24,443 nt of DNA from UHGV virus genome UHGV-0098506; one strand, given 5' to 3'. The position numbers and the translations under genes are program-made. The DNA is from a virus. How positions within the stretch are numbered: position 1 is the first letter of the stretch; every line of letters begins with the position of its first letter. Shown piece after piece: positions 50-18,711 of the stretch. Under the pieces are notes generated by a model. The model did not search any database. It saw only the letters and a list, made by a program, of their open reading frames with translations, and was not told where the DNA came from.

Positions 50-1210
50 TTACCTAGCATTTAAGTAAACCACGTTCTCCTCTTGTGCCGTATTTGTGCC
101 ATTGCGACTTATAATCGCATCGATTTTGCTCGCGTGCTCGGTGAGATGCCCGGCTGAAAGGTGGGCGTATCTTTGAACCATTTCGAGAGTTTCCCATCCT
201 CCCATCTCTTTAAGTGCAAGAAGAGAGACACCGGACTGAACCAGCCAGCTTGCCCAGGTATGCCTCAGGTCATGGAAGCGGAAGTTGCTAATGCCTGCCC
301 GCTTTAACGCTCCCTTCCATGCCTTGTTGCTGTCGGTTCTCATCTTCCTTACCGCTGCTGTTTTTGTTCCGTCGCTTCGGTAGGCAGGTTTGGTGTGGAC
401 AAATACCCATCTCTTATGGAGCCCCTGCTGTTTTCTTAATATCTGGCATGCGGTTTCGTTAAGAGGAACTCCGATCGCATTGCCAGCTTTTGTTTCATCA
501 GGGTGCATCCATGCCATTTTCTTATCCAGATCGACCTGTGACCACTCAAGGTCTGTAACGTTGGAACGGCGAAGGCCTGTCGTGATTGCAAACATGACCA
601 CAGGGAAGAAATGAGGAGCAATTTCTGCAAACAGGCGCTTCGACTCCTCCTCTGTAAGCCATCTGATTCGTCCATTCTTAACGCGTGGTGTTGATATTTT
701 GGGCGCCCTGTCAAGCCATCCCCATTCAACAGCCATATTGAGAATAGCGCGAAGTATTGCCAGATGCCGCGTCTTCGTTCCTTTACTTGCCAGCTTTGGT
801 TTATACTCCGGCACTGGCTTGCCAAGCCGCAAACACCTGTCCCGGCTCATCTCCCAGTTCAGGCGATGGCGGCGGTTTTCCATCCCGTCTACCGCCTCCA
901 TTATTTTTTCTGTTGTTATGTCAGAGAGAATGGTTTCTCTGAAGTGCAACATCCAGAACGATATAATGCTCTTGTCATCATCAATGGACTTCTTATCCGA
1001 TTTCTCACGCAGCCACCGTATGCAGGCTTCCTTGAATAGCTTTTTCGGTGATTCCCCGAGATTTTTTACTCTCCACGCTTCTGCTTTCAGACGATCGTGA
1101 AGTTCTTGCGCTTGCCTTTTGTCCGATGTTTCAAGAGAGCGTCTAACTCTTGATCCATCTGGCGCGACGAAATCACAGTGCCACGTGCCACCGCGTAGTT
1201 TGATTGACAT
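50..1210 (-). CDS. int: Tyrosine site-specific integrase (P22/lambdoid Int family)
   Basis: 386-aa ORF next to the tRNA fragment. C-terminal region contains RFHDLRHTWASWLVQSGV...LKEMGGWETLEMVQRYAHL, the R..H-x-x-R...Y catalytic signature of tyrosine recombinases. N-terminal region resembles P22 Int as I recall it. Confidence 0.9.
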   Translation of the reverse strand: MSIKLRGGTWHCDFVAPDGSRVRRSLETSDKRQAQELHDRLKAEAWRVKNLGESPKKLFKEACIRWLREKSDKKSIDDDKSIISFWMLHFRETILSDITTEKIMEAVDGMENRRHRLNWEMSRDRCLRLGKPVPEYKPKLASKGTKTRHLAILRAILNMAVEWGWLDRAPKISTPRVKNGRIRWLTEEESKRLFAEIAPHFFPVVMFAITTGLRRSNVTDLEWSQVDLDKKMAWMHPDETKAGNAIGVPLNETACQILRKQQGLHKRWVFVHTKPAYRSDGTKTAAVRKMRTDSNKAWKGALKRAGISNFRFHDLRHTWASWLVQSGVSLLALKEMGGWETLEMVQRYAHLSAGHLTEHASKIDAIISRNGTNTAQEENVVYLNAR

Positions 1211-6846: not shown

Positions 6847-7146
6847 TCAAATAAGTGGTTTGCTGCCTAATTTCATTTTTTGGCGACCAACACAAGTCAC
6901 ACCCATTTCACTGCGTGGCTTGCGGTAGTAAATACGATTCTGTTTATGCTCGACTTCTTCTGCCTTCTTGCAGCGAAGGCTTCCGAGTGATGCTGCTTTA
7001 TCTGCTCTGACGCAACCAGAGAGCTTTAGCGCAATCTTTCGCGCCAGTCGCTGCTCTTGCATTGCCTGTTCACGTTGAGCCTGTCTGCGTGCTCTGCGGC
7101 GATTTCTGGCGTTATCGTCAGCCAGATATGTAATGACTACTGTCAT
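6847..7146 (-). CDS. N: Antitermination protein N (lambda-N family)
   Basis: From the internal ATG (MTVVITYLADDNARNRRRARRQAQREQ...) there is an arginine-rich motif at the N-terminus. C-terminus RIYYRKPRSEMGVTCVGRQKMKLGSKPLI parallels the lambda N C-terminus. GGAGG Shine-Dalgarno before ATG at 7146. Confidence 0.8.
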   Translation of the reverse strand: MTVVITYLADDNARNRRRARRQAQREQAMQEQRLARKIALKLSGCVRADKAASLGSLRCKKAEEVEHKQNRIYYRKPRSEMGVTCVGRQKMKLGSKPLI

Positions 7147-13411: not shown

Positions 13412-13815
13412 CAATGCTTTTAATTCAACCTGGATTTGGCCTTAGCATCAAAAAAGGGCACATGTTCGGCGAGAAAGAGTCTCAACGAAAAATGGTGTCT
13501 ATCCGGTTGCCATTTATCAGTATTTATTGGCTAAACAGGGAGGCAACAAATTATTGGTATACCTGCGCCAGAGCAGCATTTAACGACCCTGACTGGTTTG
13601 TTAAAAACCACCACGCAGTTCGTCAGGCAAAGAGAAAGGCCAACATGACATACATGAAGGCGTATCAAAAAGCATGGAAAGAACACCGCGATCGATACCA
13701 ACAAGACATGGAAAAGCTTGAATCAGAAAACATGGAATTAAGACGAAAGCTCGGTGAAGCAAAACGAGACATTGATGCTTACAAGCGACTTTTTAATGGT
13801 GAAAGCCATGCTTAG
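13408..13815 (+). CDS. Hypothetical nin-region protein (135 aa) with C-terminal coiled coil
   Basis: ATG at 13408 in an ATGA overlap with the ninE stop, GAGGAA upstream. No family recognised. Confidence 0.55.
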
Positions 13816-13984
13816 CCCATCCCAAACCCTTCAATACCAGAAAGAAAGCGTCGAGCGGGCTTTAACGTGCGCTAACTGCGGTCAGAAGCTGCATGTGCTG
13901 GAAGTTCACGTGTGTGAGCACTGCTGTGCAGAACTGATGAGCGATCCGAATAGCTCAATGTACGAGGAAGAAGACGATGAATGA
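13808..13984 (+). CDS. ninF: NinF
   Basis: From the internal ATG: [58 protein letters not shown], nearly identical to lambda NinF as recalled. Confidence 0.8.
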   Translation: MLSPSQTLQYQKESVERALTCANCGQKLHVLEVHVCEHCCAELMSDPNSSMYEEEDDE

Positions 13985-14699
13985 GTTAATAAATGGCAAT
14001 GCCATCAAAATGACAAGCATTGAAATCGCTGAGTTGGTTGGTAAGCGTCATGACAATGTGAAACGTACCATCGAAACGCTGGCTAAAAATGGTGTTATCC
14101 GGCTTCCTCAAATTGAGGATCGTGGAAGAATCAATGGGTTAGGCTTAAATCAAAGTTTTTGTGTGTATGTATTCGAAGGCGAACAAGGAAAGCGAGACAG
14201 TATTGTCGTTGTTGCCCAGTTGTCGCCGTAATTCACCGCTCGCCTTGTTGACCGCTGGCGAGAGCTTGAAGAAGCTGCGGTTAATATCCCAAAAACGCTA
14301 CCAGAAGCGTTGCGCCTTGCTGCTGACCTTGCTGAGCAGAAAATGCAACTGGAAAACCAGCTCGCAATTGCCGCACCTAAAGTTGAGTTTGCCGATCGCG
14401 TTGGCGAGGCCAGCGGAATTTTGATTGGAAACTTTGCAAAGGTTGTTGGAATTGGTCCAAACAAACTGTTTGCGTGGATGCGCGATCACAAAATCCTTAT
14501 TGCTTCAGGTTCCCGGCGCAATGTGCCAATGCAGGAATATATGGATCGCGGCTATTTCACAGTGAAAGAAACAGCGTTCAACACAAATCACGGAATACAG
14601 ATATCGTTCACCACAAAAATCACCGGGCGTGGTCAACAGTGGCTGACCAGAAGGCTGCTCTATAGCGGAATGCTGAAAGTAACAGGGGAGGCTGCTTAA
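13977..14699 (+). pseudogene. Antirepressor/Roi-like gene (N-terminal Rha/ORF6N-like DNA-binding domain plus C-terminal KilA-C/ANT domain) interrupted by an in-frame TAA at 14229-14231
   Basis: ORF 13977-14231 and the region 14232-14699 are in the same frame, separated only by TAA. Read-through translation gives ...VVVAQLSP*FTARLVDRWRELEEAAVNIPKTLPEALRLAADLAEQKMQLENQL..., continuous with a KilA-C-type C-terminal domain. Confidence 0.55.
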
Positions 14700-14989
14700 T
14701 GGCTAAACTACGCAAAGAAGCGCGCGGCAGAGAATGCCAGGTACGTATTTACGGCGTATGCAATGGCAACCCTGAAACTACAGTTCTGGCACATTACCGG
14801 ATGGCTGGAATTTGCGGAACGGGAATGAAGCCTGACGACCTGATCGGCGCATGGGCTTGTAGCGCGTGTCACGATGAAATCGACCGACGTACCCATAACC
14901 TCGACAACAAAGACGCCAGACTTTACCACCTCGAAGGCGTGATCAGGACGCAGGCGATACTGCTGAAGGAGGGGAAGATTAAGTCATGA
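14699..14989 (+). CDS. YbcO-like DUF1364 protein (putative nuclease, Cys-rich)
   Basis: MAKLRKEARGRECQVRIYGVCNGNPETTVLAHYR...ACSACHDEIDRRTH closely resembles E. coli DLP12 YbcO as recalled. Sits immediately upstream of rusA. Confidence 0.75.
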   Translation: MAKLRKEARGRECQVRIYGVCNGNPETTVLAHYRMAGICGTGMKPDDLIGAWACSACHDEIDRRTHNLDNKDARLYHLEGVIRTQAILLKEGKIKS

Positions 14990-15348
14990 ACGAATATCAG
15001 TTTGTGCTTCCATACCCGCCGTCGGTGAACACCTACTGGCGAAGACGGGGAAGCCAATACTACATCAGCGATAAAGGCCAGAAATACCGAAAAGACGTTC
15101 AGCAAATCATCCGCCAACTCAAGTTAGACATTTTCACCAAATCACGACTCCGTATCAAAGTCATCGCAGACGTTCCAGACTCCCGCCGCCGCGACCTCGA
15201 CAACATCCTGAAAGGTTTACTCGACTCCCTTATCCACGCCGGATTTGCGGAAGACGACGAGCAATTCGATGACATTCGCGTAATTCGTGGCGTGAAAGTA
15301 CCAGGCGGAAGGCTTGGAATAAAAATCACCGAACTGGAGAACGCATGA
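14986..15348 (+). CDS. rusA: RusA Holliday-junction resolvase
   Basis: 120 aa with conserved RusA features (PPSVNTYW, acidic DxD and DNIxK-type catalytic region: RRRDLDNILKGLLDSL). ATGA overlap with upstream stop. Confidence 0.9.
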   Translation: MNEYQFVLPYPPSVNTYWRRRGSQYYISDKGQKYRKDVQQIIRQLKLDIFTKSRLRIKVIADVPDSRRRDLDNILKGLLDSLIHAGFAEDDEQFDDIRVIRGVKVPGGRLGIKITELENA

Positions 15349-18180: not shown

Positions 18181-18711
18181 ATGAAGTACCCAACAGTTAT
18201 TGTCAATGGTGTGTCCGTTCGTGTTGATGAGGATGGACGCTACAACTTAAACGATCTCCATGCAGCAGCAGTTGCAAATGGAGAGGCTACAGAGCAACAG
18301 CGCCCAAGCCAGTTTTTGCGTAGCGCGCAGATAAAACGCTTCATAAAAGCACTGGAGGCCAAAGTGCAAAAAAGCACTTTGGAACAAATTCAACCACTTA
18401 AAATAATCAAAGGTGGTGCAGAACCAGGTGTGTGGGGTGTTGAACTTCTGGCAATCAGATATGCAGCATGGATTAAGCCGGAATTTGAAATCGAAGTTTA
18501 TGAAGTTTTCAAAACGGTCGTCCGTCTCGGCGTTGGCGCAATGTCCCGTCTGAATAGAATCGATCACATCATCAATACTGAAACCAAAGCGATAAGCCAG
18601 TGCGCAAGCCAAATGGCTAAGTGGGGCGTTGGTGGGCGAAAAAGATTGCTTCATGTTGCACGTGAGAGAGCGGCAAATGAAGTGCAAATGTATTTGCCCG
18701 GAATGGTGTGA
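18181..18711 (+). CDS. KilA-N domain protein
   Basis: N-terminal region (VNGVSVRVDEDGRYNLNDLHAAA...PSQFLRSAQIKRFIKALE) is a typical KilA-N/APSES-type DNA-binding domain. Sits between lysis and packaging genes. Confidence 0.7.
   Translation: MKYPTVIVNGVSVRVDEDGRYNLNDLHAAAVANGEATEQQRPSQFLRSAQIKRFIKALEAKVQKSTLEQIQPLKIIKGGAEPGVWGVELLAIRYAAWIKPEFEIEVYEVFKTVVRLGVGAMSRLNRIDHIINTETKAISQCASQMAKWGVGGRKRLLHVARERAANEVQMYLPGMV

Follow-up and report, generated by a model that had tools for sequence, protein, structure and literature searches.

The closest described relatives of the locus considered here are Roi of phage HK022 and the roi genes of HK620, HK97-like, Kapi1 and Stx phages, which share with it the same position in the nin region and an architecture in which an N-terminal Phage_pRha domain is followed by an ANT/KilAC domain at the C-terminus. 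HK022 Roi reportedly has a binding site inside its own gene and, in hosts deficient in IHF, inhibits lytic growth. The Rha proteins of P22 and phi80, which belong to the Phage_pRha family and inhibit the growth of phages on IHF-deficient hosts, have this N-terminal domain family in common with Roi. The IHF-related phenotypes of Rha and Roi are said to be similar, whereas the C-terminal half of Rha differs from that of Roi, as does its position in the genome (after the lysis genes). The nin region of lambda can be deleted, and neither lambda nor P22 is known to carry roi. A further point of reference is provided by the AriS-like dual-function regulators, in which a variable N-domain is combined with an ANT/KilAC domain at the C-terminus and for which pRha plus KilAC is among the listed architectures (PMC9043618). 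The ANT/KilAC domain of AriS, a Listeria phage protein, can show activity when produced by itself (Azulay et al. 2022, PMC9043618).

Here we analyzed a stretch of 24,443 nucleotides from the virus genome UHGV-0098506 (the window), in which positions 13977-14699, judged by homology and gene order, are roi, a lambdoid nin-region gene that normally encodes one 240-residue protein with a Phage_pRha N-domain and an ANT/KilAC C-domain. In contrast to the phage homologues, which are intact at 240-241 residues, the window reading frame is broken at codon 85 by TAA. An already known gene is present here as a pseudogene allele, an ordinary inactivation and no new gene arrangement.

Layout and identity of the roi locus

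The elements of the locus are as follows.

13808..13984, plus strand: ninF, the upstream neighbour, whose 3' end overlaps the roi start; named by synteny with the annotation of Kapi1, HK620 and HK022
13977..14231, plus strand: roi 5' fragment, an open reading frame of 84 codons plus the premature TAA; Phage_pRha-type winged-helix core without the last helix of the domain
14118..14165, plus strand: hypervariable cassette in roi, codons 48-63; predicted beta-hairpin wing
14229..14231, plus strand: premature stop TAA at codon 85; GAA (Glu) to TAA via G-to-T at 14229, next base T (TAAT context)
14232..14699, plus strand: roi 3' remnant in the same frame, with 155 codons and the normal TAA; Pfam ANT, AlphaFold2 model
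14310..14312, plus strand: TTG, first in-frame start-type codon past the stop, without a Shine-Dalgarno sequence
14343..14345, plus strand: first in-frame ATG past the stop, where gene callers begin a 118-residue frame; Shine-Dalgarno signal at background level
14699..14989, plus strand: DUF1364/YbcO-type gene, the downstream neighbour, whose ATG overlaps the roi stop (TAATG); PHROG 131

Past the TAA at 14229-14231 the frame is open until the TAA at 14697-14699, and translation across the premature stop reads ...VVAQLSP*FTARLVDRW... (in a longer form, ...IVVVAQLSP*FTARLVDRWRELEE...). The list of open reading frames and this translation both agree with the earlier note on this DNA, which had described two same-frame reading frames split only by the TAA at 14229-14231. 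The note had also placed an ATG at 14310; the codon there is TTG, and an in-frame ATG follows only at 14343.

Homologues of roi occur in 214 phage records (HK620, HK022, Kapi1, HK633 and many Stx phages among them) at 90-95% identity over the full 723 nucleotides, in ~971 of 5426 complete E. coli genomes with a top identity of 98.6%, and, at the protein level, in more than 7000 clusters containing homologues of the 240-residue Roi. Compared directly, the window copy is 89.9% identical to HK022 roi and 94.9% identical to Kapi1 roi at the nucleotide level over the full 723 nucleotides, and the comparison with HK022 and HK620 roi gave a query cover of 100% at 89.9-94.9% identity. The entire roi reading frame matches phrog_63 contiguously, and the collinearity of both pieces with a single 240-residue protein goes well past what chance would give. 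All records inspected hold one unbroken roi frame of 723-726 nucleotides, located between ninF and DUF1364 (or ninG)-rusA-ninH-Q, and the order in the window is identical to this and to that of Kapi1, HK620 and HK022. The names given to the gene in these records are "DNA-binding protein Roi", "anti-repressor Ant" and "KilAC domain-containing protein"; the anti-repressor labels in RefSeq and PHROGs stem from the name of the ANT/KilAC domain and are no evidence of function.

Inspection of the Pfam matches reveals an ANT/KilAC domain in the 3' part of the locus (E 7e-33) and a weak, partial Phage_pRha match in the 5' part, which covers profile positions 1-26 of 91 and scores 29.0 bits against a cut-off of 29.9. 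In intact homologues, profile positions 1-91 are matched at 36.7-37.5 bits, with Phage_pRha spanning residues 12-99 and ANT residues 126-228. The 84-residue product therefore does not hold the complete Phage_pRha domain (residues 12-99), and the single frame of ~240 residues is interrupted by the in-frame TAA at codon 85, by which the window has a roi pseudogene (a null or truncated allele) in place of a functional family member.

The surrounding genome is a P22-like prophage with ERF, Abc2, a C2-type repressor, Cro, CII, a DnaB-type helicase, a lambda-type Q, a gp3-type small terminase and the P22 portal, as well as an integrase (50-1210, minus strand) and an N-like antiterminator (6847-7146, minus strand). 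The reverse complement of positions 1-49 reads as a tRNA 3' end (...GGTTCGACTCCTATTATCGGCACCA) directly after the integrase gene, and these 49 nucleotides recur beside proA in E. coli chromosomes whose prophages share the integrase but are otherwise quite different. On this comparison the 49 nucleotides are a shared tRNA attachment site, and the tRNA end beside the integrase, together with its recurrence next to proA, marks the element as a prophage integrated in E. coli at a tRNA site beside proA.

Several neighbouring genes deserve separate mention. A KilA-N / phrog_129 'transcriptional regulator' gene at 18181-18711 (plus strand) has the lysis cassette on one side and the small terminase on the other and represents a second shuffled phage-regulator module in the prophage, related prophages having Rha+ORF11CD3, T5orf172 or gp49-like genes at the same spot. 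The phrog_1511 gene at 13414-13815 (plus strand, 133 residues, function unassigned) stands in the spot that NinX or a DNA methylase fills in other phages. Gene callers lengthen ninF to 69 residues (13775-13984, plus strand), which makes it overlap the phrog_1511 gene, while the usual 58-residue ninF begins at 13808. The DUF1364/YbcO gene at 14699-14989 is labelled inconsistently, as 'HNH endonuclease' in PHROGs and some phage records and only as 'DUF1364' in RefSeq.

The premature stop in the protein and among alleles

An AlphaFold2 model based on an alignment of 74 diverse family members (mean pLDDT 79.7) predicts a winged helix composed of a strand at residues 11-13, helices at 14-21 and 25-38 and a hairpin at 45-67 (strands 45-52 and 58-67), followed by helices at 68-82 and 84-101, a linker at 102-107, a long helix at 108-144 and the ANT domain. 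A first model, based on a shallow alignment of 22 sequences at >=84% identity, reached a pLDDT of 40 and was discarded. Neither sequence search nor Foldseek gave a significant match in the PDB, so that there is no solved relative to fix the domain limits. In the 74-member alignment, conservation along the protein is strongest at residues 71-100, with the top score in block 81-90 (QLSPEFTARL). In the model, helix 84-101 is the final one of the conserved N-terminal module, and the stop falls on its N-cap and not in the inter-domain linker.

The one-piece architecture is a consistent property of the family. Close homologues are almost uniformly 240 residues long (top 120), the best 150 representatives of 50%-identity clusters are mostly 225-260 residues long with a single match across both domains, and this arrangement is kept down to ~40% identity. 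No homologue was found that naturally ends near residue 85 and is followed by a separate downstream gene, which is the situation that the earlier note had named as speaking against a broken gene. One 85-residue protein ending in ...SPE (P0185) was considered as a natural terminus and rejected, its three contigs all stopping right there; such look-alikes are contig-end partials, and the protein cluster of the 84-residue product likewise consists mostly of partials.

Among the cluster representatives, the N- and C-modules of the Roi family are shuffled in nature. Rearranged variants (among P0001/P0002, P0143, P0161, P0189 and P0167) include a 304-residue type extended at its front by an extra Rha-like HTH segment, types in which a replication-O-like or NinE N-terminus is fused to Roi from ~residue 72 on, and internal deletions that join residues ~60-100 to ~195; their breakpoints cluster at ~residues 72-81 and 100-130. 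An independent truncated variant, P0122, diverges in sequence past residue 112 and is present on 9 contigs.

Codon 85 is GAA or GAG (Glu) in every intact allele compared; the earlier note had named GAA or CAA as the likely sense codon. The glutamate is invariant in 26 close homologues; of the 74 more distant ones (35-57% identity), 60 have it, and its occurrence in the intact alleles marks the GAA-to-TAA transversion as the derived state. A public intact protein (P0145) is identical to the window read-through with E at position 85, and the DNA that encodes it (L030, ENA ERZ27240415) is the closest intact allele, with 2 of 723 nucleotides different from window roi, namely at 14039 (T/G, synonymous) and at 14229 (T/G), where its codon 85 is GAA. 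A sister intact allele, P0144 (Cys49), was found on at least 24 contigs, in mosaically differing P22-like prophages and in one prophage with an HK97-type capsid head module. The single other substitution that separates the TAA allele from an intact one, together with the lack of added roi changes in its lineage, indicates that the mutation is recent; the earlier note's suggestion of a recent nonsense mutation in a once-intact gene is borne out, with an intact allele at 2/723 nucleotides.

Five non-synonymous differences from the three closest complete-genome alleles (C49R, V201F, K226R, D229Y and N230S) could be read as decay following inactivation. This reading was dropped, as strains EC31 and CFSAN061763 carry four of the five changes in intact alleles and the full set is present in the intact proteins P0144 and P0145. 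In light of these alleles, the window roi is a mosaic and no decayed gene. A hypervariable cassette in the gene comprises codons 48-63, which exist as two haplotypes (DCGRINGLGLNQSFCV and VSERINNLGFNVQYEH) that differ at ~26 of 60 nucleotides between flanks that are ~99% identical. In the window it is of the DCGRINGLGLNQSFCV type and has R at position 49. The cassette coincides with the predicted beta-hairpin wing and may set DNA-site specificity.

The exact 84-residue product was recovered from 9 contigs in at least five sample accessions (ERZ1745027, SRR33453125, DRR327046, SRR17284059 and ERR1018286). Over 3-20 kb, the TAA-allele loci that were retrieved match the window at 99.96-100% identity; CCG TAA TTC is present in all five of the TAA-lineage loci, which show zero further differences inside roi. 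This degree of identity is that of one near-clonal prophage lineage sampled repeatedly. Beyond this lineage, a TAA-containing 26-mer gave zero exact matches in GTDB species representatives and JGI metagenomes, a related 20-mer (CAGTTGTCGCCNTAATTCAC) gave zero exact matches in IMG/VR, and the 101 nucleotides around the stop had no match above 98% in complete E. coli genomes. Since a single-base difference separates the window from an intact allele, a sequencing or assembly artefact with GAA as the true codon is a natural concern, and the earlier note had asked that sequencing error be excluded. The recurrence of the same TAA on 9 contigs from at least five accessions with the archive prefixes ERZ, SRR (twice), DRR and ERR excludes such an error, and we assign it practically no chance of being the explanation.

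Expression of the two pieces and alternative readings

To describe the translation signals of the locus, an anti-Shine-Dalgarno duplex energy was computed for each start and compared with the window background of -2.06 +/- 2.45 kcal/mol. The genes of the nin region (ninB, ninE, the 13414 frame, roi, DUF1364, rusA, ninH and Q) reach -5.9 to -11.8 kcal/mol. Within this range, the roi start is preceded by GAGGAAG (~13964-13970, -5.9), and the gene that begins at 14699 by a strong GGGGAGG (~14685-14691, -11.2 kcal/mol). The two candidate restart codons lie 78 nucleotides (TTG 14310) and 111 nucleotides (ATG 14343) past the stop and have energies of +0.2 and -2.3 kcal/mol, respectively. Gene callers applied to loci L005-L009 begin a 118-residue frame at ATG 14343, and the exact 129-residue product from TTG 14310 is absent from the protein collection. 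A promoter and terminator scan gave no promoter-like site in 13700-15100, and an Rfam scan and repeat search around the stop gave nothing beyond chance. In a non-exhaustive look at the genes called on L005, which is 100% identical to the window, no other disrupted gene was seen in window positions 3977-24231, the product lengths there being as in related prophages.

On balance, it is in our judgment highly probable that a nonsense mutation has simply abolished the function of an accessory regulator and left behind an 84-residue fragment, whose activity is doubtful, along with a 3' remnant that is not translated. The ancestor was a one-piece roi frame of 240 residues, and on this explanation the gene, in a P22-like (Lederbergvirus-type) prophage, was inactivated when one recent G-to-T transversion turned codon 85 from GAA into TAA, a change that is inherited within one prophage lineage. 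The translated product has lost the last helix of the N-domain (Rha-type DNA-binding), the long central helix and the entire ANT/KilAC domain. With both its start codon and its Shine-Dalgarno sequence undamaged, the 84-residue fragment would still be made; it probably is non-functional or weakly functional, being without the most conserved motif and a likely dimerisation helix, and it might still bind DNA as it keeps the helix-turn-helix and the wing. The 3' part, with no ribosome-binding site and with its nearest starts 78-111 nucleotides past the stop, would be essentially untranslated. The downstream nin genes and Q would be little affected, owing to the strong Shine-Dalgarno sequence of the gene at 14699 and an operon that presumably is transcribed by RNA polymerase carrying the modification of the N-like antiterminator; for rusA, ninH and Q, any polar effect should be small. 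As an accessory gene, roi would be lost without penalty in a P22-like prophage, and by analogy with other phages it would be dispensable in the phage of the window.

The main alternative to loss of function is a functional split, in which an N-terminal DNA-binding fragment and an ANT/KilAC part are both active and the latter arises by reinitiation at TTG 14310 or ATG 14343. The arrangement of the domains lends itself to this idea: ATG 14343 (residue 123) is located just upstream of the complete ANT domain (126-228), gene callers predict the 118-residue frame there, stand-alone ANT-only phage proteins of ~120 residues exist (phrog_9438), the KilAC domain is active on its own in Listeria AriS (PMC9043618), and natural shuffling of the N- and C-modules occurs in the family. 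Neither restart codon, however, rises above the Shine-Dalgarno background that the real nin genes clearly exceed, both are distant from the stop, and no promoter-like site was found that could serve the 3' part. Moreover, the stop interrupts the most conserved motif and leaves the linker at 102-107 untouched, no homologue ends at this position, and the allele is limited to one near-clonal lineage without compensatory changes. We consider such a split unlikely, and the earlier note's proposal of separately made domains with a translational restart loses its footing on the TTG at 14310, the background-level restart signals and a stop inside the conserved N-terminal domain. Full-length Roi could instead be produced by read-through or suppression of the stop, as the perfectly kept downstream frame might suggest; an intact frame is expected anyway for a mutation this recent. 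Termination in E. coli is reportedly most efficient where TAA is followed by T, which makes read-through unlikely, and with no recoding signal, repeat or structure found around the site, we regard it as extremely improbable.

A further proposal, compatible with loss of function, concerns why this base changed. The closest intact allele, L030, has GAATTC at the exact spot (~301-306 in L030; 14228-14233 in the window), so that the change from CCG GAA TTC to CCG TAA TTC may have been favoured by loss of an EcoRI-type site, with the nonsense codon tolerated. GAATTC is rarer than expected in the window (3 occurrences versus 10.1 +/- 2.9 in shuffles), and many other alleles are without the site through a synonymous GAG. 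Against this, the GAA-to-GAG change is costless and already common, three other GAATTC sites stay in the window, and one event is indistinguishable from chance. With the synonymous variant this common, the idea is suggestive at most, and selection for site loss appears very unlikely as the driving force. Equally slight is the prospect of a combination, in which a free winged-helix fragment and a KilAC part reinitiated at low level act independently, perhaps also favoured by loss of the EcoRI-type site; if true, it would uncouple regulation of phage genes from a host-directed (for example SOS-modulating) activity.

Comparison with known systems

Under the loss-of-function reading, the locus carries little weight beyond annotation: the called frames of 84 and 118 residues are one roi pseudogene, and an annotation to avoid is that of a small 'Rha-family regulator' next to a separate 'antirepressor'. 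The inhibition of lytic growth in IHF-deficient hosts reported for HK022 Roi implies that a null allele could be neutral or even helpful. If the genetics of HK022 carries over, such an allele could permit growth on IHF-deficient hosts or slightly shift induction, and the window prophage would be a convenient natural roi-minus reference for the poorly understood Roi/KilAC regulators.

Roi and the AriS-like regulators follow the same two-module logic, although the demonstrated relationship between them consists only of shared Pfam domains. The AriS-like architecture is present in the ancestral roi frame and broken in the window allele, in which the KilAC module, unlike that of AriS-like regulators, is cut off from its translation start. 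A closer parallel to the event itself is found in the Stx2a phages PST1-3 and PST1-6, in which roi is interrupted by IS629 (Yin et al. 2015, PMC4587872). As in the window, the same accessory gene is naturally inactivated in a lambdoid prophage that is otherwise apparently complete; the two cases differ in that PST1-3 and PST1-6 have an IS insertion and a different phage backbone, in contrast to the point nonsense mutation described here. Natural loss of roi is thus recurrent, through a point mutation, a truncated variant and an IS insertion, which fits an accessory role for the gene.
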